Shown: piece after piece, positions 2,051-38,636 of the stretch
Layout: every line of letters starts with the position of its first letter
Numbering within the stretch: the stretch's first letter is position 1
Origin: Chiloscyllium plagiosum
Lineage: Eukaryota
DNA: 38,954 nt
NCBI RefSeq assembly: GCF_004010195.1
Contig: NC_057718.1
Location: 52,980,280-53,019,233 of the forward strand
Direction of reading: 5' to 3'
Notes under the pieces: generated by a model
Databases searched by the model: none
What the model was told of the DNA's origin: nothing
Seen by the model: the letters and a program-made list of their open reading frames with translations, nothing else
Made by a program: the position numbers and the translations under genes

Positions 2051-2628
2051 TTATGAGACTTCCACAGTAGCAGACTTCGTAATCTTTTTATGCATCATGA
2101 ATATTTATTGTATCTGTGCAACAGAGTGAATTTTAGCACTATGAGATGAATATTTAAATGATTACCTGTTAGTATCTATCCTGATCAGCATTAAATGATT
2201 TGAGATAAAAGAAGTATAAAAAAAGGGTGATGTGTTGACTGTCATTCTGCATCTCACTGTTTATGAGGAGAGGATCCTAACTCTGACCACACTGAGCAGA
2301 GTCCAGACTGGGTATAGGAGGCTGCTCTTGACTTTCTGTGCCAGAATCTCTTTAGCAAAGACTGTCTCCCTTGACTGGACTGGAACCTGTTAACATCCAT
2401 GGCAATCTTCCTGGCTGTGTTTGAATGGCATGAGCCAGTAGTAATATGAGCCTGGAATCTCTGGCTGAGGGTGGCAATGTGCAAAAAGGCCAGGCAAGGC
2501 AATGCTGGGCAGGGATGTTGTACGCATTCAGGTTGGCACATGATTTGGAGATACTGGTGTTGGACTGGAGTATACAAAGTTAAAAATCACACAACAGCAG
2601 ATTATAGTCCAACAGGTTTATATGGAAG

Positions 2629-2663
2629 CATGGACTTTCGGAGCACTGCACCTTTATCAGGTT
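2629..2663 (-). ncRNA. Decayed hammerhead motif (probably inactive)
   Basis: Minus strand reads AAC-CTGATAA-A-GGTGC-AGT-GCTCC-GAAA-GTCC; the core G8 is changed to A and stem III is disrupted. Confidence 0.65.
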
Positions 2664-3044
2664 GTTGTGGAATGTAAGATCACAAGACACAGAATTTATA
2701 GTAACAATTTTCAGTGTGATGTAACTGAAATTATGCATTGAAAAAGACCAGGATTGTCTGTTAAGTCTCCCATCTCTTAGAATGAACATATTAGTTTCAG
2801 TTCTTTCGAATGTAAATTACAGAACATTTTTAAAGTTACATTCTCAGGTGAACTTCAACAATTGGTGTCATGTCAGCCTAGATAATGCATTGAAGGTGCG
2901 AGGTACCCTGTGAGACTGTCTGTGCCACAATGTTCAGACTGATTCTAATCTAAAAAAATGGATTTGCAAAATCTTACATGAATTCATGCAGTTTTTGAGC
3001 AAAATAAAATGTAAATCTGAAAGTACAAATTCATCCCACAAACT

Positions 3045-3282
3045 TATATGTGTGTTTGTGCGTCAGAGGGGACAGTTTATGGGGGACAGTTTATGGGTGT
3101 CTGTGAGAGAGTGTATGTGTTGTGTTAGTGGCAGTGTAAAGGGTATAAGTCTGTGAGAGGTTGTGTATGTGAAAGTGGGAGGGGATGTGTGAGCGTTTGA
3201 GAAAGAGCTTGTGTATGAGAGAGGGTCTGTGTGTGTGAGTGTGTGTGTCTGTAGGTGTATGTGTCTGTAGGAGTGTGTGTGT
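3045..3282 (+). repeat. Degenerate (GT/GA)-rich low-complexity tract inside the PLE 3' region
   Basis: Visible GTGT/GAGA runs. Confidence 0.85.
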
Positions 3283-10229: not shown

Positions 10230-11330
10230 CAGGAACAGCAATACGTTTCCAAGTCAGGATAATGTGTGGCTTGGAGGGGAATTTTTAGGTGGTTGTGTTC
10301 CCATGTATCTACTGCCCTTGTCCATCGAGCTGGAAATGTTTCTGTGTTTGGAAGATGCTCTGTAAGGATCTTTGGTGAATTTCTATAGAATATCTTGTAG
10401 CTAGGACACACTGCTGCTACTGAGTACCACTGGTGGAAGGAGTGGATGCTTGTGGCTGTGTTGCCAATCTAGAGAGCTACTTTTAGATTAGATTAGATTA
10501 CATTACAGTGTGGAAACAGGCCCTTCGGCCCAACAAGTCCACACCGACCCGCCGAAGCGCAACCCACCCATACCCTACATTTACTCCTTACCTAACACTA
10601 CGGGCAATTTAGCATGGCCAATTCACCTGACCTGCACATCTTTGGACTGTGGGAGGAAACCGGAGCACCCGGAGGAAACCCACGCAGACACGGGGAGAAC
10701 GTGCAAACTCCACACAGTCAGTCGCCTGAGGTGGGAATTGAACCCGGGTCTCCGGTGCTGTGAGGCAGCAGTGCTAACCACTGTGCCACCGTGCCCCTGT
10801 CCTGGATGATGTCAAGCTTCTTGAGTGTTGTTGGAGCTGTAATCATCGATGCAAGTAGGGAGTATACTATCACATTCCTGACTTGTGCCTTGCTGATGGT
10901 GAACAGGAAGTGAATTACTGACCAGAGTATTCCTGGTTTCTGGGATGTTCTGGTTACCACTGTGTTTATATGACAAGTCCAGTTGAGGTGGTGGTCAATA
11001 GTGAGCCCCAGGACTTTGATAGAGGCAGTTTCAGTGATGGTAACACCATTGAGTGTCAATAGGCAAAGGTGAGATCTCCTCTTATTGAAGATGGTCATTA
11101 CTTGGCATGTGAGTGGCACAAATTCTACTTGTCACTTGCCAGTTATTGCATTTGAACATTGACTGCCTCAGGGGTCGTGTATGGTGCTGAACATTGTGCA
11201 ATGATTGGAGAACTTCCCCATTTCTGACCAAGTGTTGGAGGGAAGGCCAGTGATGAAAGCAGTTGAAGATAGTTGGGCCTAGGACACTACCTTGAGGAAC
11301 TCCTTCAGAGATATCCTAGACTGAGTTGTG
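10230..11330 (-). mobile_element. LINE RT C-terminal fragment (CR1/L2 group) interrupted by an HE1 SINE
   Basis: ORF 10718-11119 gives KVLGLTIDHHLNWTCHI...KAQVRNVIVYS...TLKKLDIIQD; homology resumes left of 10483. Confidence 0.8.
10483..10796 (-). mobile_element. HE1-type tRNA-derived SINE, young copy
   Basis: Minus strand has A box TGGCACAGTGG, B box GGTTCAATTCC, the CR1-like hairpin GGGCCGAAGGGCC and a (TCTAA)n tail; four more copies occur in the window. Confidence 0.92.
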
Positions 11331-20800: not shown

Positions 20801-21119
20801 GGGGATGGCATGGTGGCACAGTGGTTAGCACTGCTGCCTCACAGTGCCAGAGACTGGGTTCAATTCCCACCTCAGGCAACTATCTGTGTGAAGTTTGCAC
20901 TTTCTCCCCGTGTCTGCGTGGGTTTCCTCCGGGTTTCCTCCCACAGTCCAAAAAATGTGCATGTTAGGTGAATTGGCCATGCTAAATTGCCTGTAGTGTT
21001 AGGTGAAGGAGTAAATGTAGAGTAATGGGTCTGGGTGGGTTGCTCTTCAGAGGGTCGGTGTGGACTTGTTGGGCCAAAGGGCCTGTTTCCATACTGTCAG
21101 TAATCTAATCTAATCTAAT
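20801..21119 (+). mobile_element. HE1-type SINE
   Basis: TGGCACAGTGG A box, GGTTCAATTCC B box, (TAATC)n tail; homologous to 10483-10796. Confidence 0.92.
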
Positions 21120-21169: not shown

Positions 21170-22400
21170 TAAATAAATTATCACCACAGAAACAAACTTT
21201 TGAAGCTATGATTGACAAGTCCTTGGATCATGGTGGACTTGATTTTTGAGTCTTACAAGAAGTGGCTATTGAGATAGTTGAAGTATTGGTTTTAAATTTT
21301 TTAATTTCCTTAGATTAATGGAACGTTAGATTAGATACAAAAATGTCAAATGTAACTCCTTTATCCAAAGGATAGGAAGACAAAAAGATGTAAAAACAGC
21401 TTATTATGTCATAGCGATAATGTTAGAATCTATTATTTAAAACATTACAACAGGGCACTTGGGAAAGTTCAAGATAATCATATGGAATAAACATGGATTT
21501 GTGAAAGAAACAGTATATTTAACTAATTTTTGAAGTTCTTTTAGGATGTTATATGTACAGAGGATAAAGGGAAACCAGTGGATATTCTGTACTTATATTT
21601 TCAAAAGCTATTTGATAAAATACCACATCAAATGTTATAATGGACAATAAAAGCTCATGGTGTATGGGGCAACATGTTGCTATTATTACAAGGTTGGTTA
21701 GGTAACAGGAAACAAGGTGTTGTCATTTCCTGGTTTGCCAATGTGCAGGTACAGCAAACAATTAGGAATACTGACAGGATTTAATCATTTATTGTGACTG
21801 AAATTGAGTACAATTGTAAGGACATTATGCTTCAGTCAAGCAGGACATAGGTGAGACCACATTTAAAGGGCATTCTTATTAATCGGTCTTCTTATTTAAA
21901 GAAGAATGCAAATGTGTAAAAAACTTTTTAAAGAAGGTTGACCAGACTGATATCTAGGATCGATGGGCAGCCTTTTGAGGAAATGTTTAACAGGAAGGAC
22001 TGGAACCTGTCGTAAGTAGGAGACAGTTTGATTGAAACATTTAAGATCCTGAAAAATCTTGACTGGGTGGATTCAGCAAATATGTTTCTTCTTGTGGGTG
22101 AATCTAAAACAAAGAGTCAAAATTTAAAAGTAAGGTATCACCAATTTAAAACAGAGATGAGTGTTTTCTCGTCATGTAAATTTGTGAGTCTTTGGAATTT
22201 ACATCCTCAAAACAAAGTGGAAGCCCTTGAATATCTTTAAAGCACAGGGAGGCAGATTCTTGAAAGACAATAGGGTGAAAAGATATTCAGGGAGGTAGAA
22301 ATGTTTGGAATCAGATCAGCCATGTTTTATGGAATAGTCAGCAGGCTTGAGGAACCAAGTGGTCTACTCCTGCTCTTAATACAAAGATTTGGATTCATAT
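21170..22400 (+). mobile_element. Old CR1 ORF2 3' half, degenerate with deletions
   Basis: Remnants DKSLG, NVTPL, VDILYL.FQK.FDKIPH, LIETFKILK and a CR1-type end near 22345-22380. Confidence 0.8.
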
Positions 22401-22419
22401 GTGCCTCTCCAAAAAGGTA
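22347..22419 (+). repeat. 73-bp direct repeat, left copy
   Basis: ttgaggaaccaagtgg...ctctccaaaaaggta is identical to 22713-22785. Confidence 0.95.
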
Positions 22420-22478
22420 GCTGAAAATGTGTTGCTGGAACAGCGCAGCAGGTCAGGCAGCATCCAGGGAACAGGAGA

Positions 22479-22512
22479 ATCGATGTTTCGGGCATAAGCC
22501 CTTCTTCAGGAA
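22479..22512 (-). ncRNA. Hammerhead motif (stem III palindrome broken)
   Basis: TTC-CTGAAGA-A-GGGC-TTAT-GCCC-GAAA-CA-TC-GAT on the minus strand. Confidence 0.7.
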
Positions 22513-22522
22513 ACCTGATTCA

Positions 22523-22556
22523 TTCCTGAAGAAGGGCTTATGCCCGAAACGTCGAT
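22523..22556 (+). ncRNA. Minimal type-I hammerhead ribozyme, intact core
   Basis: TTC-CTGAAGA-A-GGGC-TTAT-GCCC-GAAA-CG-TC-GAT: ACGU palindromic stem III, GUC cleavage triplet ending at 22553; stem I is short. Confidence 0.8.
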
Positions 22557-22580
22557 TCTCCTGTTCCCTGGCTGCCTTTA

Positions 22581-22614
22581 TTCCTGATGAAGGGCTTTTG
22601 CCCGAAACGGCGAT
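22581..22614 (+). ncRNA. Hammerhead motif with mutated cleavage triplet
   Basis: TTC-CTGATGA-A-GGGC-TTTT-GCCC-GAAA-CG-GC-GAT; GGC replaces GUC. Confidence 0.7.
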
Positions 22615-22712
22615 TTCGCCTGTCCTTGGATGCTGCCTGAACTGCTGTGCTCTTCCAGCACCACTAATCCAGAATCTGGTTTCCAGCATCTGCAGTCATT
22701 GTTTTTACCTCG

Positions 22713-22785
22713 TTGAGGAACCAAGTGGTCTACTCCTGCTCTTAATACAAAGATTTGGATTCATATGTGCCTCTCCAAAAAGGTA
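22713..22785 (+). repeat. 73-bp direct repeat, right copy
   Basis: Identical to 22347-22419. Confidence 0.95.
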
Positions 22786-22965: not shown

Positions 22966-23488
22966 TGTAATGATTGAAACAAGGTCAGCTCGGTGGACTT
23001 CATAGAATATGAGTTCCCTGACTTGTACTGTTAATCAGATCCAATCAGGGATGACAGATAAGAGCAGGAGTGTCAGACATCCTGTAGCTCAGTGGTTAGC
23101 ACTGCTGCTTCACAGCGCTAGGGACCTGGGTTTGATTCCAGCCTCAGGCTACTGTCTGTGTTGAGTTTGCACATTCCTCCCGTGTCAGCATGGGTTTCCT
23201 CCAGGTGCTCCAGTTTCCTCCCACAGCCCAAAGATGTGCAGGTCAGGTGAATTGGCCATGCTAAATTGCCTGTAGTGTGGGTGCATTAGTCAGAGGGAAA
23301 TGGGTCTGGTTGGGTTACTCTTTGGAGGGTCAGTGTGGACTTGTTGGGCTGAAGGGCCTTTTTCCACACTGTCGGGAATCTAATCTAATCTTAAACATCC
23401 TATTCAGTGTAAGAGCTAGCTCTGAGGGAATTGGATGAGTGTAAAGGGGAGTTGGTGATGGGATATTAGCCTCTGTGGAGTTACTTCA
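22966..23488 (+). mobile_element. Solo LTR (Gypsy-type) interrupted by an HE1 SINE
   Basis: TG...CA ends and flanks gtgga/gtggg. Shares tatgagttccctg, ccaatcaggga, ttggtga and agttac blocks with the LTR at 32947-33168 (minus strand). Confidence 0.75.
23084..23394 (+). mobile_element. HE1-type SINE with 7-bp TSD (ACATCCT)
   Basis: SINE homology; acatcct at 23077-23083 and 23395-23401. Confidence 0.92.
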
Positions 23489-25419: not shown

Positions 25420-25858
25420 ATAGTGATAGAGGAGAAGGAGCTGGCAGAAGTGGGAGGTAAAGGGCTCTCAGCAGGAGGTCATACCCACCTAAGGTTTTCA
25501 AGGAAGCAATGCACCGAGCTGAATCTCAGAAAGGAACAATAAGTCAGATGTTTGTTCTGTTGTAAGAACGTCCTTATTTGTAATCTACTACTGAAGCCAG
25601 AACTCTAGCCTCTGAGCACAACAAGGACTGCATTGCTTGTGGCTGTGACCATTATCATGATCTTTACATGTTCGTCCCCTTCCAGGCAGTATTAAGGATA
25701 TTTATAAACTTTTCCAGTTTGGCAACTATCATTTCATGAGTCAGGTTACTGAGGCCTTATATTCTGAGAGAGATGAAAACATTTCAACTTATCTAACAGA
25801 GACAGAGAAAAGATGATATATTTCTTTGCTTGATTTCTGCGTTTCTCCATGGTGCAAT
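25420..25858 (+). mobile_element. PIF/Harbinger DNA transposon remnant (HARBI1-like transposase N-terminal half)
   Basis: Frame-broken peptides RRSYPPKVFK, LNLRKEQ*VR, L*PLSTTRTALLVAV, FQA and SQVTEALYSERDENIS appear in the order expected for Harbinger transposases. Confidence 0.7.
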
Positions 25859-26322
25859 ATGAGAGTTAGGTTTAGATTAGGTTTCATTGCCATGTTTTTT
25901 TTTGTTACGTTACTCATATACGGTGTACAAGAGGACATTGAAAACTAAGTGGATACATGTAACTTTGCAATTTTCCATGTTGTAAATTCTATGATGCAGC
26001 ATAATTGCAAGTGGAGCTAAAGTGCAATTATATGCAGAATATCACAGGACTTAATGTCTCAAATCCAGGCAGACGCCTTGACACCTAAATTCAATGTCTT
26101 TATTCTATGTGTCTCTTATCAATGTTAGATCATGACAAATAAAAACAGGAGTAGAGGTTGACCCAGCAAGACTGCTCCATCATTCAATAGGATCATTGCA
26201 CCACATTCATTTTCTTGCCCTTCCCCCTAACTCTTGATGCCTTTACTGGTCAAGAATTTACATAACTCAGCCTTAAATATACACAAGGACTCTGTGCCGA
26301 CAGCTCTCTGTAGCAACGAGAT

Positions 26323-27650
26323 CCAAGATGGTGGCGGAGGAGGACGCTCAGCCAGAGCGTGTCCATTCCATCTATTCTTCTTCCGCTTTCTTTCTTTTTC
26401 TTTCCTCTTAGTGTCTTTTACTTCTCTATCCCAGCCTCCGATGACTCCTGGCCTTGTGCAGCAGCCTCCTGGCGTGAAATGGCGACCTCCCAGCGTGATG
26501 CAGCAGCCTCCCTTAGCGATCTCCCGGCCTGGTGCAGTAGCCTCCCATAGTAGCCTTCTGGCATGGTGAAGCAGCCTCCCATAGTGGCCTTCTGGCCTGG
26601 TGCAGTAGCCTCCCATAGCAGCCTCCTGGCCTGGTGCAGCAGCCTCCCATAGTGATCTCCCGGCCTGGTGCAGCAGCCTCCTATAGCGATCTCCTGGCCT
26701 GGTGCAGCTGCCTCTATAGCGATCTCCAGGCCTGGTGTAGCAGCCTCCCATAGCGATCTCCTGGTCTGGTGCAGCAGCCTCCTATAGCGATCTCCTGGCC
26801 TGGTGCAGTAGCCTCCCATAGTAGGCTTCTGGCCTGGTGCAGCAGCCTCCCATAGTAGCCTCCTAGCCTGGTGCAGCAGCCTCCCATAGTGATCTCCCGG
26901 CCTGGTGCAGCAGCTTCCCATAGCAGCCTCCTGGCCTGGTGCAGTAGCCTCCCATAGTAGCCTTCTGGCCTGGTGCAGCAGCCTCCCATAGTAGCCTCCT
27001 GGGCTGGTGCAGCAGCCTCTCATAGCGATCTCCCGGCCTGGTGCAGCAGCCTCCCACAGCGATCTCCTGGCCTGGTGCAGCAGCCTCCTATAGCGATCTC
27101 CCGGCCTGGTGCAGCAGCCTCTCATAGCGATCTCCCGGCCTGGTGCAGCAGCCTCCCATAGCGATCTCCCAGCTTGGTGCAGCAGCCTCCCATGGAGATC
27201 TCAGGGTCTGGTGCAGCAGCGTCCCTTAGCGATCTCCTGGCCTAGTGCAGCTGCCTCCCATAGCAGCCTCTTGATCTGGTGCAGCTGCCTCCCATTGCAA
27301 CCTCCCGGTGTGGTGGAGTTACCTCCTGGTGTGGCATGGCAATCTCCCAGCCCAGCATGGTGGCCTCTCTACCTACTGAAGCAGCCTCCTGGATGGCAAT
27401 CTGAAGCACTCTCCCGGCCTTATAAATCTCAAGGTGAAACCCTGTGAAGTCTGCAGCTAGGGCCCAGTGTGGTCTGTTGTTCTGAACTTTTATTTCTGCA
27501 ATGCTGGACATTTTGTTTCTCAATTGTCTAAGATCTTATAACTAAAGAACCTGTACCTATGTATCTTTGTACCTAGGTTGGCACTGTAAGTGGTGACATA
27601 TAAACCTTCCACTATCCTCATTGTGTATATGTGACAATAGAGGCTAATTC
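26323..27650 (+). mobile_element. Putative non-autonomous retroposon with internal VNTR and Rex1-like 3' tail
   Basis: Interrupts the CR1. Starts ccaagatggtggcgg and ends aaaccttccactatcctcattgtgtatatgtgacaatagag, similar to the Rex1 tail at 37785-37825 (minus strand). Confidence 0.6.
26494..27308 (+). repeat. 34-bp minisatellite, 24 units
   Basis: Unit CCTGGTGCAGCAGCCTCCCATAG followed by either CGATCTCCYGG or YAGCCTYCTGG; units counted by eye, one is 33 bp. Confidence 0.95.
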
Positions 27651-27885
27651 TCATGAAAAGACCTATCAGAGAAGAAATTCCTCCTTATCACAAACTTAAA
27701 TTGACACACACTTAATGCTGAGTCTATGTTGACTGGTCATAGACTCTTCCATGAGGGGGAGTATCCTCTCAGTATATACCCTGTCAAGCTTAAGAATCCC
27801 ACATGTCTCAATAAGATCACCTCTCATTCTTTCCCAAGTAGAGTCACAACCTGTTTATGCTTTGCTCATAAGGCAGTCCCTCCAT

Positions 27886-28086
27886 GGTGGGTGCCTGGAA
27901 TGTGTTGCCAGCGGAGGTAGTAGGGGTGAGAACAATAGACAGATAGATGCATGGGCAGGAAGCAAAGGGATACAGATCCTGAGAAAATAGGCGGCAGGTT
28001 TAGATAGAAGATCTGGATCAGCGCAGGCCTGGAGGGCCGAAGGGCTTGTACCTGTGCTGTAAGGCTCTATGTTCTTTGGTCTTTGT
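27886..28086 (+). mobile_element. 5'-truncated CR1 3' end with 5-bp TSD (TCCAT)
   Basis: gggtgcctggaatgtgttgcca...ggagggccgaagggc...ctatgttct; tccat at 27881-27885 and 28087-28091. Confidence 0.85.
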
Positions 28087-28209
28087 TCCATACTGGAGAT
28101 CACCACAGAAAACTTTCACTGAACTGCTTCCAGTCAAATAACATCTTTCCTTCAATAAGGCAACCAAAACTGCTCACAGTACTCTAGATGTGGTCTCACC
28201 AGGACCTTG

Positions 28210-28521
28210 GGGGGCAGCATGGTGGCTCAGTGGTTAGCACTGCTGCCTCACAGTGCTAGGGACCTGGGTTCAATTCCAGCCTCGGGTGACTGCATAGAGT
28301 TTGCATGTTCTCCCTGTGTTTGCATGGGTTTCCTCTGGGTGCTCCGGTTCCCTCCCACAGTCCAAAGATGTGCAGGTCAGATGAATTGGCCATGCTAAAC
28401 TGCCCGTAGTGTTAGGTGGGAAAGTAGGGGAATGGGTCTGGGTAGGTTACTCTTCGGAGGGTTGATGTGGACTTGTTGGGCCGAAGGGCCTGTTTCTGCT
28501 CTGTAGGGACTCGAATCTGAT
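28210..28521 (+). mobile_element. HE1-type SINE (4-bp flanking repeat CTTG)
   Basis: A and B boxes, family homology; cttg at 28206-28209 and 28522-28525. Confidence 0.92.
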
Positions 28522-28869
28522 CTTGTACAATCGTAATGTGGCTTCCTGACTCTTATACTCCAATCCCTTTGAAATAAGGGATAACATTCCATTCGCTATC
28601 TGGATGAGGTGCTGCATCTGCGTGCTGGCTTTCTGTGCTTCATGCACAAGTATCCCCAAGTCCCTTTGTGTTGTGATTTTCTCAGTCTTCCTCCTTTTAA
28701 ATAATACTCTGTTCTTTTGTCTCCCCTTCTGAAATGAACAGCTTCACATTTTCCCACACTATGTCCACAACTTCTTGCCCACTTTCTTACCCTCACAATA
28801 TCTCTCCGTAAATTCTTCGTATCCCTGTCTCAACTTACCTATCCATTATTTTCCACACAGCTTCATTTG

Positions 28870-29908: not shown

Positions 29909-31060
29909 AATGCATATCCTCACCAGTGTATGGAACACTTTGTCACAACATATAAAGTGAACAGCTAAGGGGGAGAAAGGAGGGACAAGAGGCAGAAGAG
30001 AGGGAGTGAGAAAGAAAGGAAAGGGTGAAACAACTTATAGACAATCATTTTCTGGATGGGATGAGTGACTTCATGAGTAACTTTTCCAAATGTGAGATCC
30101 AATAAACAGAACGCCAATTCCCCTATCACTACAATCTAACACCTTACCTTCTGTCTTTTATACATAATCACAATAGCTGGCCATGACACATATTTATCAC
30201 TAACCAAAATGGGCAAATCAAATTTACAAAGCAAAGATTCTTATAATGCATACAGAAAGCAACAAAACCCCATCTCTTATGCGTTTTCTTCATCCCTGTT
30301 TTCTGAGTGTACATGTCTGTACTACAATGACTGTGACAAGACTGGTGGAAGGCTGTTGTCCTTCATTGGAGGAGATTATAATTCCTATTGGGTGTTTTCA
30401 GGCAGCTGACCTTAAAAGTCTGGGCTTTAATTGGGACGGTATGATCTCAGCATGGGCAGCAATTATCTCAACTGGCTGGCTGACTGGAGATAGCAAAGAC
30501 ACTGGTAAACAAAGCAGAGGGAGGATTTATACTGTCATCCTGAGAGACAGGGCAGCAGGCTCATGCTCCATTAAACTATTTCCTATTACCCTTGACCGGT
30601 GCTTTAGCAAACCTGGTAACTTGCTGGAGGGCTATGAGCTCAATTTGCTCGTGGTGCAGAGGAGTTGGAAACTTATTCCATGGAACACCACATTTTTATT
30701 GGTTCCACAACCATTCTGAAAGAGTTGACCATCAAATCCAGGTGGAAGAGTATGAACTCTGGGCTCTTGTAAAGCCCTGTCCATGCTTCTTCACAACTTG
30801 CAGGTCCTACCTTGAAGCTGTCTTTTGAATTAAAGGCAGGGCCAATGCATGAGCTAATGAATGTGATGATAAAAGTGAATGATGTGTTTCTTCTTTATCC
30901 TGGCCTCACAGTTTTCTATCTCTTGCTCTCTAGCCCATTCGTACTTCTGGGTATCTAAGAGAAAGAAAGACACTCGAAGTGAAGAAAGGAGGGGTAAGTA
31001 AGAGGTCGCTGGTAATACAACATGTAGCTTATAAATCAGAAGAGATTCTATGATAAGAGA

Positions 31061-31388
31061 GGCATGGTGGCTCAGTGGTTAGCACTGCTGCCTCACAGTG
31101 TCAGGGACCTGAGTTCGATTCCAGCCTTGGGCAGACTGTCTGTATGGAGGTTGCACATTTTCCCTGCTTCTGCGTGGGTTTCCTCCGGGTGTTCCAGTTT
31201 CCTCCCACAATCCAAAGACATGCAGGTTAGGTGAATTGGCCGTGATAAATTGCCCGTAGTATTCAAGAATGTGTAGGTTAGGTGTGTTAATCAAGGGTAA
31301 ATACAGGATAATGGAGAATGTCTGGGTAGGTGTGAACTTGTTAGGCCGAAGGGCCTGTTTCTATACTGTAGGAATTCTATGATTCTAC
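31061..31388 (+). mobile_element. HE1-type SINE (variant tail, ATTCTATG repeat)
   Basis: TGGCTCAGTGG A box, AGTTCGATTCC B box, family homology. Confidence 0.9.
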
Positions 31389-32946: not shown

Positions 32947-34285
32947 TGTAGTAACTGCAGAGAGATCCTTATCTCCTCACCAAGTCACCCTTTATTTACA
33001 AGTGCACTGTCCATGGACTCTAACCAGCCAGCTCAGAGCCAGTCCCTAGAGTGAGAAGACTCCGAGACTCCTGTTTATACCCTGTCCCACAGGGGTCCCT
33101 GATTGGTCCAGGTTAACAGCCCCAGCCAGGGAACTCATACTCAATGAGATCCTCATTCCAATCACTATTTCCCCCCCACCTCTGGTAAGTCCGGGAATGT
33201 AGGCCTGCTCTGTTTTTTGGAGCTCCCCCCGGCATGCTTTCACCCAAGGTCTGGTTCCTCCAACTCTGATGCAGACACAGGCGGACCCATAGTTGGCCTC
33301 TTGCTTCCGAAGCATCTAAGAAATTCATCTTTTTCTTCTGGCAGTAACATTATCAAGGTTGCATTCACCTCGGCCTCTGAGGTTTGTTTGAAGCTAGACG
33401 GAAGAGGAGAACCCACAGTTTCTGACAGCCTTTGTGGCTGTTCTGAGGGGCCAGGTATGTTTAGATCTTGGCCTGCTTGTGCAGTAATTGCTTTCAGTTA
33501 GTACACGTGTGTTCGGGATTGTCTCACCTAACTGATCTTTTAATGTCAAGGGACCTGACCTTGTGTCAACCTTGCCTCGTACCCATGTGGTTTCTGTGGT
33601 TTCAACACCAAACTCTGTCCCCTGAAATAAACTGTCTCTCTCACTAAGAGGACGCATATAGTTGGCATTGGCATTCCTGTTGCCGTTTCATCTTCCCCTG
33701 CCCAGGTTTGGGAATATCAGATTTAACCTAGTGTGGTCTATTCCCATCGGCAACACTGCTAGAGCTATCTGTGTAGTTGTGTGAGGATGGCCCTATAATC
33801 AAATAGGAACCGGGACAGTTTGACATCGAGTGAAGCTATAGGCTATTTCTTTAAGTCTGCTTTCAACATTTGGACTGTTCTTTCCACCAGACCATTGAAT
33901 GATATATGGTATGGATCTGTCTGAACATTCTGAATCCCATTTGACTTTGGAAAATCCTTGAAGTCCCTGCTGATAAATTGGGTCCTATTGTTCATGACCA
34001 ATACTTCTCGGAGACCATATATCACAAACGATGCTCGCAGCTTTTCAATTGTCATCCCTGAGTTTGCCAAATGAACTCTATGCATGTCATACCATTTTGA
34101 ATGGGTATACACAATGACCAAAAAAATTGAGCTCATGAAAAGACCAGTAGATTAGGCCTGCAACCAAGTTAGGGGGTTTAGCAGCCATTCCCATGAATAT
34201 GGAGGAATGATAATTTTTGTCCTCATTGGCATTCTGGGCATTACCCCACCAATGCAGGATGGGTAATCCAAGATGGAGGATGGGA
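32947..34285 (-). mobile_element. Gypsy-type LTR retrotransposon 3' part: integrase remnant, PPT, 3' LTR
   Basis: CPECQ, FLVIV..HSKW, IEKLRASF..YGL.EVLV.NN.TQF.S and PYH.S.NGLVERTVQ. G7 polypurine tract at 33171-33177. LTR 32947-33168 has TATAAA, AATAAA and a terminal CA. Confidence 0.9.
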
Positions 34286-34289
34286 AACA

Positions 34290-37200
34290 TTTGTGGGTGT
34301 AAAAGCTGCTCCTTTTTTGAGGTATTTTAGGTGCTGGAGGTGATTTCCTCGAATTCCAGGAGCAGCAATTACTGTTTTATATGCTGTTATATTGTTTTGG
34401 AACTTTGGAGGAAAAAAGGCAAAACAACAGTATTTTTAAAAGGGAGAATTACAGACAATAGGCAGCACATAATCAGTGAAGGAGAGAGAGAGAGAATCCC
34501 ACTGCTAACTAACACAGTTACTGCCTTTGCTGTTTGAATTCATGTATCATTGGGCATGGGAGGATTTCTCAGAAAACTTAACAAATAGTGAAATTCACAA
34601 CTGATCTTGGAGGAACTGATCTTGCAGAGGTCACAGCACAGAAATAGATAAGTGTGTAACTTTAAGCATAGCCTTGCTGTAATTCTACAATAGTGAGTAG
34701 AGTGGCTTGTTTCTTCATTCCATGTTTTATTGAGATCTGTCTCTTGATTAAATTTTAAAAATATAAGCCATAGGTACTAAGTTAACCTGGAAAAGTGTTT
34801 TGTAGAGCAATAAGATGGTGCTATTTTCTGGGCCTGTAGAGCGGAAGAAGCAAAAATGGCCCTTTGTAAAGTGATATGCTCTTTTTGTCAGATGCGGGAG
34901 TTAAGGGAGAGTGTACGTGTTACTGAAGATTAGATCTGCAATAAATGTCATTGGTTGCAAATCCTATCCTATTGAATGGATCAGTTGGAGTGACAGTTCA
35001 AGCAAATGAGGATTTACAAGAGCAAAGGGGTGGGATGGATGGCAGTTACAGAAAAGGAGAAAAGTCGCAGATACAGTCACATAACTCCAGGAAAAGTAGG
35101 AGAGGTAGGCAGGTAGTGTAGCAGTCTTCTGTGGTTATCCCCATTTCAAACAAGTATGCTGTTTTGGAAAATGTAGGGAGTGATGGATTCTCAGGGAAAT
35201 GTAGCACGAACAGCCAAGTTTCTAGTATCAAGAATGGCTCTAATGTAATGAGGGATACATCGAGTTCCAAGAGATCAATTGTAATAGGGGACCTCTCTAG
35301 TCAGAGGCACAAACAAGTGTTCTGGTTCCAGCAGTGAGAAATCAGAATGGTGTGTTGCTTCCCTGCTGCCAGGATCAAGGATGTCTCAAGGAGGAGAGGG
35401 ACCAGCAGGATGTCATTGGAACCAATGACATAGGAAAGGAAAAGGATGAGATTCTGAAGGGAGAATATAGAAAGTTTGTCAGGAATTTAAAAAGGAGATC
35501 CTCGAGGGTAGTAATATCGAGATTACTCGTGGTGCTGCGAGCTAGTTAGAGTAAGAATAGGATAGAGCAGATGAATGCATGGCTGAGGAGCTGGTTGTAT
35601 CAGGGAAGGATTTACATGTTTGGATCATTGGAATCTCTTCTGGTGTAGACGTGACCTCTACAAGAAGGATGGATTGCATCTGAATTGGAAGAGGATTAAT
35701 ATACTGGCAGGGATATTTACTCGAGCTGCTCGGGAGGACTTAAACTAGTAAGTTTGGGGGTGGGATCCAGGGAGATGCTGAGGAAAGAGATCAATCTGAG
35801 ACTGGTACAGTTGATAAAAGAAGCGAGTCAAACAGCAAGGGCAGGCAGCGACAAAGCAGAAAACAAGGTAGAAATTAAACTGCATTTATTTCAATGCAAG
35901 AGGCCTAACAGGGAAGACAGATGAACTCAGGGCATGGTTAGGGACATGGGACTGGGATATCATAGTAATTACAGATAGGTGGCTCAGGGATAGACAGGAC
36001 TGGTAGCTTCATGTTCCAGGATACAAATGCTACAGGAAGGACAGAAAGGGAGGCAAGAGAGGAGGGGGAGTGGCATTTTTGATCAGGGATAATGTTACAG
36101 CTGTACATAGGGAGGATATTCCCAGAAATACATTCAGGGAAGTTATTTGGATGGAACTGAAAATAAGAAAGGGCTGATCATCTTATTGGGACTGTGTTAC
36201 AGAACTGCTAATTGTCAGCAGGAAACAAATTTGGAAGGAGATCTCAGTTATCTGTAAGAATAATAAGGTGGTTACGGTAGGGAATTTTAACTTTCCAAAC
36301 ATAGACTGGGACTGCCATAGTGTTAAGGGTTTAGATGGAGAGGAATTTGGTAATTATGTACAAGAAAAGTTTCTGATTCAGTATGTGGATGTACCTATGA
36401 GAGAAGGCGCAAAACTTGACCTACTCTTGGGAAATAAGACAGGTAAGGTGACTGAGGTGACTGTGGGGGAGCACTTTGGGGCCAATGAGCATAATTCTAT
36501 TAGTTTTAAAATAGTGAAGGAAAAGGGTAGGCTAGATCTAAAAGTTGAAATTCTAAATTGGACGAAGGCTAATTTTGACTGTATGAGGCAAGAATTTTCA
36601 AAAGCTGATTGGGGACAGATGTTCGCAGGTAAAGGGGTGGCTGGAAAATGAGAAGCCTTCAGAAATGAGAAAACGAGAGTTCAGAGACATTATATTCCTG
36701 TTAGGGCTAAAGGAAAGGCTGGTAGGTGTAGGGTAAACTGGATGACTAGAGAAATTAAGGGTTTACTTAAGAAAAAGAAGGAAGCATATGTCAGGTATAG
36801 ACAGGATAGATTGAGTGAATCCTTGGAAGAGTATAAAGGCAGTAGGAGTATACTTAAGAGGGAAATCAGAAGGGCAAAAAGGCGACATGAAATAGCTTTG
36901 GTAAACAGGGTAAAGGAGAATCCAAAGGTTTTTACAAATACATTTAAGGACAAAAGAATAACTAGGGAGAGATTAGTGGCCCCTCAAAGATCACAGGAGA
37001 TGGGAGAAGATACTAACCAAGTATTTTGTATCAGTGTTTACTGTGGAGAAGGACATGGAAGATTTGGATTGTGGGGAAATAGATGGTGACATCTTGAAAA
37101 ATGTCCATATTACAGAGGAGGAAGTGCTGGATGTCTTGAAACGTATAAAGGTGGATAAATCCCAGGATCCAATCAGGTGTACCCGAGAACTCTATGGGAA

Positions 37201-37752
37201 GCTAGGGAAGTGATTGCTGGGTCCCTTGCTGAGATATTTGTATCATTGATAGTCACAGGTGAGGTGCCGGAATACTGGAGGTTGGCTAACATGGCACCAC
37301 TATTTCAGAAAGGTGATAGGGATAAGCCAGGGAACGATAGACCAGTAAGCCTGACATCAGTATTGGGCAAATTGTTGGAGGGAATCCTCAGGGACAGGAT
37401 GTACATGTATTTGGAAAGGCAAGGATGGATTAGGGAAAGTCAACATGGCTTTATGCATGGGAAATTATGTCTCATAAACTTGATTGAGTTTTTTATAGAA
37501 GTAACAAAGAGGATTGATGAGGGCAGAATGGTGGATAAGGTCTATATGAACTTCAGTAAGGCGTTCGACAAGGTTCCCCATGGGAGACTGGTTGCCAAGT
37601 TAAGATCTCATGGAATACAGGGAGAACTAACTATTTGGATACAGAACTGGCTCAAAGGTAGAAGACAGAGGGTGGTGGTGGTGGGTTGTTTTTCAGACTG
37701 GAGGCCTGTGACCAGTGGAATGCCACAAGGATTGGTGCTGGGTCCTCTACTT
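34290..37752 (+). mobile_element. CR1 LINE with 5'UTR, ORF1 and ORF2 remnants, 3'-truncated
   Basis: ORF1 from ATG 34856 (CSFC...CNKC, IVIGD, IGTND); endonuclease (CIYFNARGL, VGNFNFP, LDLLLGN); RT (RPVSLTS, SQHGF, FSKAFDKVPH, PQGLVLGPLL). Confidence 0.93.
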
Positions 37753-38595
37753 TTGAATTGAATTGAATTGAAATGAATTGAATTTATTGGCACGTGTACC
37801 GAGGCACAGTGAAAATCTTTGTCTTGCAAGCATACAGGCAGATCACAGAGTTAAGTAGCATAGGTAGTGAATAATAGGTAATCAGCGGCAAAAACAAAAA
37901 CACAGGTACAGGAGAATATTAAGAGTTTGTGAGTCCATTCAGTATTCTAACAACAGTAGAGTAGAAACTGTTATGAAACAGGCTGGTGCGTGTGTTTAGG
38001 CTTGTAGATTGTAGAAAAACATTGCCAGGGTGGCATGGATCTTTAAGAATGCTGGCAGACTTTCCTTGACAGCAGGCATGGTAGATGGGTGGTTGGCCTT
38101 TGTGATTGTCCAGGCCGAGTTCACCAATCTCTGTAACCGTCTCAGATATTGAATGGTACACTAGCCATACCCGGCAGTGATATATCCAGACAGAATGCTC
38201 TCGATGGTGCACCGATAAAAATTGGCAAAGGTATTTGCCATCATGCCAAATTTCCTCAGCTGCCTGAGGAAGAAGAGAGGCTGTTGTAATCAGTGCATCC
38301 ACATGAGGAGTCCAAAAAAGCTTGCTCTGGATGACCACTCCCAGGAGCTTGACACTGTCCATTCGTTCCACCTCTGTGCTGTTAATGTGTAGAGGGGCAT
38401 AAGTAACATCCTGTCGAAAGTCAATAATGAGTCACTTGGTTTTGCCGGCATTAGAGCTAGGTTGTTCTCAGTGCATCATTTTTCCAGATCTTCTGCCTCC
38501 TGTCTGTAGTCTGTTTCGTCGCCATCTGACATTTGACCAACTATGGTGGTATCATCAGCGAACTTGTAAATGGCATTAGTCTGGTATTTGGCAGT
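37752..38595 (-). mobile_element. Rex1/Babar-type LINE 3' fragment with (TTCAA)n tail
   Basis: Minus strand YKFADDTTIVGQMSDGDETDYRQE, CTENNLAL, KTK*LIIDFR, VKLLGVVI, RTSLFHNSFY; tail cactgtgcctcggtacacgtgccaataaa plus (TTCAA)n. Confidence 0.88.
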
Positions 38596-38636
38596 TAGTT
38601 CCTGGTTTCAGTTATCGCTGATTGGTACTGGTGCAT

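Follow-up and report, generated by a model that had tools for sequence, protein, structure and literature searches.

An old insert in a shark CR1 element is probably a non-autonomous Rex1-type retroposon, SVA-like in layout, with a tandem-repeat core

A 1.33-kb insert without an open reading frame (26324-27650) interrupts a CR1 fragment in the genome of Chiloscyllium plagiosum. It lies in the window analysed here, a stretch of 38,954 nucleotides (contig NC_057718.1, 52,980,280 to 53,019,233). The insert is probably a non-autonomous Rex1-type retroposon that resembles an SVA in layout but is not an SVA. On balance, we favour the reading that it is an old, dead copy of an abundant, ORF-less, non-autonomous shark retroposon family with a YY1-type head and mobilisation of Rex1/Babar type, and that its tandem array was amplified after insertion. 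The original prediction had named a head, a pyrimidine tract, a 34-bp array and a tail, and all of these were found where it had placed them. The features to which the text refers are the following.

26100-26328, minus strand: host CR1 fragment to the left of the insert (ORF2 end and 3' UTR), its final letters overlapping the AAGA of the head.
26324-26365, plus strand: head starting CAAGATGGTGGCGG, with a putative YY1-type initiator motif at the junction.
26366-26432, plus strand: pyrimidine tract, 59 of 67 letters C or T.
26445-26507, plus strand: three 21-bp units, the 5' anchor of the repeat core (lag-21 identity 0.60, 1 of 5000 shuffles).
26496-27310, plus strand: 34-bp array with 24 units, one of them 33 bp long, each unit a 21-mer plus a 13-mer.
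27302-27385, plus strand: four 21-bp units, the 3' anchor (lag-21 identity 0.54, 0 of 5000 shuffles).
27386-27458, plus strand: spacer with few matches among other contigs at 80%, its depth in organism A being close to single copy.
27459-27650, plus strand: tail conserved across the family and, by contig depth, present in high copy in each of the organisms A, B and C.
27574-27583, plus strand: second, decayed AAGATGG-type motif, where other copies mostly have A at 27576 and A at 27578.
27606-27650, plus strand: LINE-like 3' end (CACT, a stem and GTGACAATA, then a short CTAATT-type end), a putative reverse transcriptase (RT) recognition signal.
27650-27760, minus strand: host CR1, which resumes with CTCA; target without duplication.
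37755-38607, minus strand: decayed 3' part of a LINE with RT and PF09004, with a short 3' UTR and a (TTCAA)n end; the proposed partner type.
10483-10798, 20807-21118, 23084-23395, 28217-28523 and 31058-31372: tRNA-headed SINEs.

That the insert belongs to a dispersed family, as had been predicted, is borne out by its tail. With likeness set at 80%, matches to the interval 27243-27760 were sought in three sets of DNA contigs, from organisms A, B and C, and in one RNA run. The matching contig records numbered 978, 1045 and 799, counts that include matches to the CR1 flank, and the majority letter at 27515 alone was carried by 107, 101 and 100 contigs in the three organisms. Summed depth in set X1 was 309-2614 over 27459-27656 versus 4.8-6.8 at 27369-27422, summed depth not being the same as copy number. 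Judged by these contigs, the tail is clearly a dispersed repeat that occupies many loci in each of the three organisms. Within it, the T-rich stretch 27477-27530 reaches a depth of 1600-2600 in X1, two to three times that at the extreme 3' end; this stretch may be common to another repeat subfamily, or may simply be better preserved.

The longest pieces from other copies mostly show 27-38 differences per 160-190 nt. Among the differences listed, the copy under study departs from the family majority at no fewer than 12 of 126 tail positions (27499-27624), and it is old because it has accumulated so many differences from that majority. Contigs from organisms B and C also span the 3' junction, differing at 7 and 14 of 268 nt; the insertion is shared by all three organisms and therefore predates their split. 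The copy is thus old, and it is dead. About 2% of a single-cell RNA run was covered and gave 37 matching reads; these stem from other copies, since 0 of the 37 match at 95% or more. Most of them fall within 27549-27620, and one orientation predominates (peak 22 versus 4). Other copies are thus present in RNA at a low level, possibly within host transcripts.

Both flanks of the insert are CR1 sequence on the minus strand. The left flank was recognised by its minus-frame translation, SWISLLQRAVGTESLCIFKAELCKFLTSKGIKS, and by blastn matches to two other CR1 ends. In contigs of other CR1 copies, the uninterrupted host reads CAAGGAGTTCCAAAGACTCACAACCCTCTG (loose-end consensus). The left flank tracks the CR1 consensus to CCAAGA and the right flank restarts at CTCA (27650), about where the consensus built from loose ends picks up again. 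The CR1 host itself has CCAAAGA at the 5' junction, so that the AAGA of the head overlaps the target, and these four of the head's first letters are possibly host letters. Compared with this consensus, the insertion appears to have removed no host letters and to have left no obvious duplication. The absence of a target-site duplication agrees with the original prediction, the longest word common to both junction regions being 4 nt. A 5-nt duplication of AAAGA was considered and rejected, as it would require a deletion together with extra letters; a blunt join with microhomology is preferred because it fits the CR1 consensus directly.

The insert had been said to lack RT, and no trace of RT was found in its long reading frames by Pfam. 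None of four long frames over the insert (0/4) reached the Pfam cut-off for any family, and no homologue of the array reading frame was found among 8000 candidates scored; coding by the array frames was rejected on these two grounds. Self-comparison revealed no second copy of head or tail within the window. Patterns for head and tail had 0 matches in metagenome and viral contigs, collections that are not shark and are therefore uninformative here. Rfam returned a single chance-level match (E 1) over 25500-28700 and ARAGORN 0 tRNA genes in the region, blanks that say little, since both programs also missed the genuine tRNA SINE at 28217.

The tail had been likened to the 3' end of a Rex1/Babar LINE elsewhere in the window. 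We take the element at 37783-38607, which carries RT and PF09004, to be of Rex1/Babar type, on the assumption that PF09004 marks this clade; none of the programs used gave it the name Rex1. Its FADD RT motif is present, its PF09004 match lies above the cut-off (25.2 bits), and RVT_1 together with PF09004 occurs in 6 of 12 relatives scanned. Nine of the ten relatives looked up are fish or unnamed proteins, those with names being fish proteins. The element is 5'-truncated in the window, and its 3' UTR is only about 140 nt. Rex1/Babar LINEs are described as having a conserved 3' UTR with an oligonucleotide repeat after it (available text of PMC6274825), a description which the (TTCAA)n end of the LINE at 37783 fits.

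Aligned with 37775-37835 (minus strand), the tail scores 13 against a shuffle mean of 6.9. With lenient scoring this was reached by 3 of 2000 shuffles (10 of 5000 in another run), whereas with strict scoring 499 of 5000 reached the score. The predicted likeness is therefore genuine, if modest: it emerges under lenient scoring, is lost under strict scoring, and covers about 45 nt. The homology is confined to these last 45 nt or so, the sequence upstream being insignificant (261/1000), and the match does not stand out in a search of the whole window. The LINE end was the one match among eight retroposon ends, the seven others in the window giving 162-1964 of 2000 shuffles. The letters of other copies bear on the comparison in both directions: the family majority agrees with the LINE at 27609 and departs from it at 27616. 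Other copies mostly have A at 27616 and 27624, and a third to a half have G at 27614. These common letters, together with an RNA loose end, TGAGTACATGGGACAATAAAGCTAATTCAA, imply that the family would carry a GTAC-containing inverted repeat before CAATAAA, as the LINE does. The two decayed tails in the window folded no better than their shuffles (z -0.65 and -0.71). Similarity of the tail to one teleost LINE of the same domain type was insignificant (248/1000), which suggests that the shared end is possibly lineage-specific.

Several observations concern this LINE in its own right. Within 37159-38607, the LINE on the minus strand borders on a plus-strand piece of CR1 RT (RVT_1, E 3e-15); the LINE at 37783 sits at or within CR1 sequence, as does the insert. 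Two TRIM35-like isoforms of Chiloscyllium plagiosum, 3 and 4 (P0001 and P0008), match the 3' part of this type of LINE at their C-termini with 63-76% identity, which suggests that the isoform ends derive from an exonised LINE fragment. No relatives of the LINE were found in viral contigs. Among prokaryote genome contigs, two loci hold fish-type LINE fragments as pieces of ORFs (L001, 369-1220, and L002, 1-633); in these two bacterial genome records they are most likely host DNA carried into the assemblies. The tail had no significant match to the one locus that includes a 3' UTR.

At the other end of the insert, the predicted head motif CAAGATGGTGGCGG is present at 26324. In the window CAAGATGGYGGC occurs once when up to one mismatch is allowed, but 27 of 100 shuffles also contain one such 12-mer. 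The motif therefore counts only through its position at the junction, because more than a quarter of the shuffles yield one as well. It lies exactly at the junction and continues TGGTGGCGGA, near the start consensus of mammalian L1 5' ends, which ends CAAGATGGCGGA, a YY1 site (available text of PMC5381506). The head folds with z -1.8 (7 of 200 shuffles). The head motif gains indirect support from the tail, in which a related motif recurs. At 27576, other copies have A in 932/1037, 3458/3715 and 1480/1633 of depth, and at 27578 in 864/1031, 2745/3690 and 1280/1641, that is, in 74-93% of depth at the two positions; T at 27582 and G at 27583 are minor letters. These letters give the other copies a further AAGATGG motif, its CpG decayed, at a distance of 75 nt from the 3' end. 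More speculatively, the terminal module may be a fused LINE 5' end and 3' end, that is, a bipartite tail; a module of LINE start plus LINE end has been described for RTE-dependent SINEs (available text of PMC5786205 and PMC7245038).

These data bear on the reading in which the insert is what 5' truncation left of a longer element, such as an autonomous Rex1-type LINE subfamily with a long, repeat-rich 3' UTR, its head being a chance motif made in part of CR1 letters. The overlap of AAGA with the CCAAAGA of the host would fit this, as would the frequency of the motif in shuffled windows, and the loose ends before 27474 continue for a median of 255 nt. Against it stand the exact placement of the motif at the junction with its L1-like continuation, the repetition of the motif near the 3' end of the family, the shortness of the 3' UTR in the local LINE, and the lack of any RT trace in the insert. 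We consider a truncated longer element unlikely and retain the reading of a non-autonomous family with a putative head of its own.

The head had also been described as lacking a tRNA-derived part, and this held. It contains an A-box-like 12-mer, TGGCGGAGGAGG, at 26332 (+9), the position expected in a tRNA head, but a B box is absent: the best B-like word has 3 mismatches, so that none lies within 2 mismatches in this one decayed copy. A and B boxes at tRNA spacing were not found in the head, whereas 5 of 5 control SINEs from the window pass, each with a B box within 1 mismatch, 43-44 nt past the A box. These controls are the five tRNA-headed SINE copies, 74-88% alike and with intact A and B boxes, which we take to be of HE1/V-SINE type. 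Together with the CR1 content and with protein matches named Chiloscyllium and Scyliorhinus, SINEs of this type point to a shark host. Alignment of the head to four of four SINE heads was insignificant (380-1944 of 2000 shuffles). T-rich runs in the pyrimidine tract would be expected to stop Pol III, which counts against a Pol III element; the tract itself, 59 of 67 C or T, is as predicted. A tRNA-derived Pol III SINE with a Rex1-type tail and a decayed B box is nevertheless a reading with precedent, since a tRNA SINE of Nematostella, SINE2-5_NV, is paired with Rex1-24_NV (available text of PMC3747384), and the ARAGORN and Rfam blanks weigh little against it given the true SINE that they missed. 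Set against the box and alignment results, we regard it as very unlikely.

Three further elements were noted in the window. A short fold-back element, self-inverted, at 22429-22664 is presumably of Penelope type; it is flanked by a perfect 73-bp direct repeat (22347-22419 and 22713-22785, 100% identical), an unusually long and clean duplication. A second element, presumably also of Penelope type, has its 3' end at 1-1020, with a 132-aa open frame that has no Pfam match, and an older inverted copy at 2575-3055 (74-80%). A weak match to the rve integrase core at 33843-34148 on the minus strand (E 0.005, below the cut-off) is probably a decayed LTR retrotransposon between the short repeats 23000-23051 and 33096-33147.

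Between head and tail lies the repeat core, on which the original prediction needed revision. The 24-unit VNTR itself is real: TRF calls an array at 26499-27295 (period 34, 23.5 copies, 85% matches, score 1020), and a direct count gives 24 units, all of them 34 bp long except for a single unit of 33 bp. The neighbouring sequence, described earlier as unique, proved to be composed of 21-bp units. Every 34-mer splits into a 21-mer and a 13-mer, and pure 21-mers flank the array on both sides. The 3' block of 21-mers is multi-copy in the three organisms (peak depth 160, 231 and 103) and is joined to the tail in other contigs in the same order. Among 15 joints listed, at least five link 27270-27352 to 27474-27483; the short side reaches 30 letters or more in only two of the five core-tail joints listed, and joints at this likeness need caution. 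By contig set, the core-tail joints listed come from 4 contigs of X1, 3 of X13 and 2 of X18.

Joints that go back within the core have periods of 63 (X1 and X13) and 42 (X18); the letters inserted at them fill out 21-mers. The period-63 joints of X1 and X13 have identical letters and probably represent one orthologous locus. Both periods are multiples of 21, the period found independently in the window. The orthologue in organism B is 22 letters longer over 27243-27509; one of these is a listed single-letter insertion, and we infer that the remaining 21 amount to the length of one further unit. From such joints, unit number is taken to vary within the family. We therefore take the family core to be a degenerate 21-bp repeat, given the pure 21-mers on either side of the array and the blocks of 21-bp period in other copies. 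Depth over the block falls far short of that over the tail (peak 160 versus 713-2614 in X1): many tail copies may be truncated or without the core, or its CpG-rich part may fail the 80% filter.

The joining of block and tail also bears on the reading of the insert as a compound of unrelated events, in which a short retroposon consisting of the tail only came to lie beside an independent minisatellite. The near single-copy spacer between core and tail in organism A (27369-27440) could be taken in its favour. It is countered by the other contigs, in which the tail follows the 21-mer block as it does here, and by the CR1, which is broken at a single point and contributes no sequence between the parts. 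We regard a compound of this kind as extremely unlikely, and treat core and tail as parts of one family.

The 34-bp array is another matter. Private differences amount to 19 of 782 bases, or 9 of 646 in the first 19 full units; the 782 bases leave out the 33-bp unit, and recurrent CpG changes were excluded, which makes the count a lower bound. Identical pairs of units number 3 of 253. Private divergence is thus about 2% in the array versus about 10% in the tail, which argues for growth or turnover in place. The letters CAGCA are nearly fixed across the units, where another copy reads GCGGCGG, and this fits amplification starting from a genomic unit whose CpGs had already decayed. On these comparisons, the array is most likely younger than the insertion, through expansion or turnover in place.

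The opposing reading makes the 34-bp array a hallmark of the family that was transposed in RNA, with many copies consisting of head, long 34-bp VNTR and tail. Depth over the last two array units lies above the single-copy level in all three DNA runs (9-13, 14-15 and 27-31), a weak test for 34-mers elsewhere, given that interior 68-mers have 65-81% identity to the compared terminal units and only 2 of 20 exceed 80%. By the same token, 34-mer arrays elsewhere could be missed. In one contig of organism B, 24 nt resembling a unit are joined to the tail (27270 to 27478), and the VNTRs of SVA and LAVA are also remodelled at the DNA level (available text of PMC4432496), which makes homogeneity compatible with an inherited array. 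Inheritance is opposed by the low private divergence of the array relative to the tail, by the extra units of other copies, which are 21-mers and not 34-mers, and by the near fixation of CpG-decayed letters. We judge an inherited 34-bp array to be distinctly unlikely. The predicted VNTR retroposon therefore survives in altered form: other copies do carry a core of 21-bp period upstream of the tail, with differing unit numbers, but the unit of the family would be a degenerate 21-mer, and the 24 x 34-bp array, which appears younger than the insertion, is most likely a local expansion or turnover. A hairpin-repeat RNA was rejected as well, since each of 200 shuffles folded better than four array units did (z +3.2).

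Under the preferred reading, members of the family would be transcribed by Pol II from the YY1-type CAAGATGG head, in the manner of LINE 5' ends. A Rex1/Babar-type LINE protein would bind their RNA at the 3' stem and CAATAAA end, and target-primed reverse transcription would then integrate it; at this locus, the 5' junction would have formed through a microhomology of 4 nt (AAGA). Once the copy was in place, one 21+21 dimer of its core, shortened by 8 bp and stripped of its CpGs (21+13 = 34 bp), would have been amplified in the chromosome to 24 units by slippage or unequal exchange.

Among known systems, the insert comes closest in its workings to ORF-less, bipartite non-autonomous LINEs or SIDEs (Bov-A, RTESINE, RIME and the R2 SIDEs, PMC5786205; Persaeus, derived from CR1, PMC6740152), as described in the available text of these papers. 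It shares with them the lack of an ORF and of a clear small-RNA head, a LINE-like start motif, a LINE-like 3' end (in this case a modest likeness of about 45 nt under lenient scoring) and a presumed Pol II transcript. It differs in its tandem-repeat core. According to the same sources, ORF-less bipartite LINEs derive from RTE, Ingi, Vingi and R2 only (Kojima 2018, PMC5786205), to which CR1 was added in 2019 (PMC6740152); Rex1 has 0 occurrences in the available text of either paper.

The second comparison is with SVA, LAVA, PVA and FVA, which likewise consist of head, GC-rich tandem core and tail (available text of PMC4432496 and PMC6139936). As here, SVA and LAVA have conserved units at both ends of the core, a variable interior and remodelling of repeats at the DNA level (PMC4432496). 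These elements are described as hominoid-specific, use L1, contain Alu-like and (in SVA) retroviral parts, and have 30-50 bp units, poly(A) and target-site duplications (PMC4432496, PMC6139936). The insert differs in its 21-bp base unit, the lack of poly(A) and of a duplication, and a short-repeat end like that of the local LINE; it ends in GCTAATT, followed directly by CR1. Alu-like, hexamer, SINE-R or L1 parts were not seen: TRF found no hexamer array and Rfam no 7SL match, the latter having low sensitivity for decayed heads. Of the SVA-like architecture that had been proposed, the layout remains and the other defining parts of an SVA (poly(A), duplication, Alu-like part, retroviral domain) do not.

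Other systems share single features. SINE2-5_NV sets a precedent for non-autonomous elements whose tail pairs them with a Rex1 LINE, but it has a tRNA head, and a repeat core is absent from its description in the available text (PMC3747384). Rex1/Babar LINEs share the conserved 3' untranslated end and short oligonucleotide repeat (available text of PMC6274825), whereas the insert has no coding for RT or endonuclease. Minisatellites derived from transposons are similar as tandem repeats that grow by local duplication inside a transposon copy (Ahmed and Liang 2012, available text of PMC3389668); here the seed was a repeat core already present in the family. Rex is not mentioned in the available text of a paper on shark SINEs (PMC5499810). 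We found no description of this family, or of a Rex1-dependent VNTR element, in the papers covered; the family may already be present, unclassified, in Repbase or Dfam.

More tentatively, the family as a whole could be a VNTR-composite lineage of sharks, independent in origin from the SVA and LAVA of apes: ORF-less, transcribed by Pol II from a YY1-type head, with conserved units at both ends of a 21-bp core and a bipartite end derived from Rex1. Its copies would be moved by Rex1/Babar LINEs and would seed locus-specific minisatellites such as the 34-bp array. If the head is part of the family, Rex1/Babar would join the LINE clades that give rise to ORF-less passengers without a tRNA head (RTE, Ingi, Vingi and R2, PMC5786205; CR1, PMC6740152), as far as these are covered in the available text, and the family would provide a non-primate parallel to the VNTR composites that are called hominoid-specific in that of PMC4432496. 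If true, it would also allow us to ask whether a tandem core aids mobilisation when the LINE recognises a 3' sequence and not poly(A).
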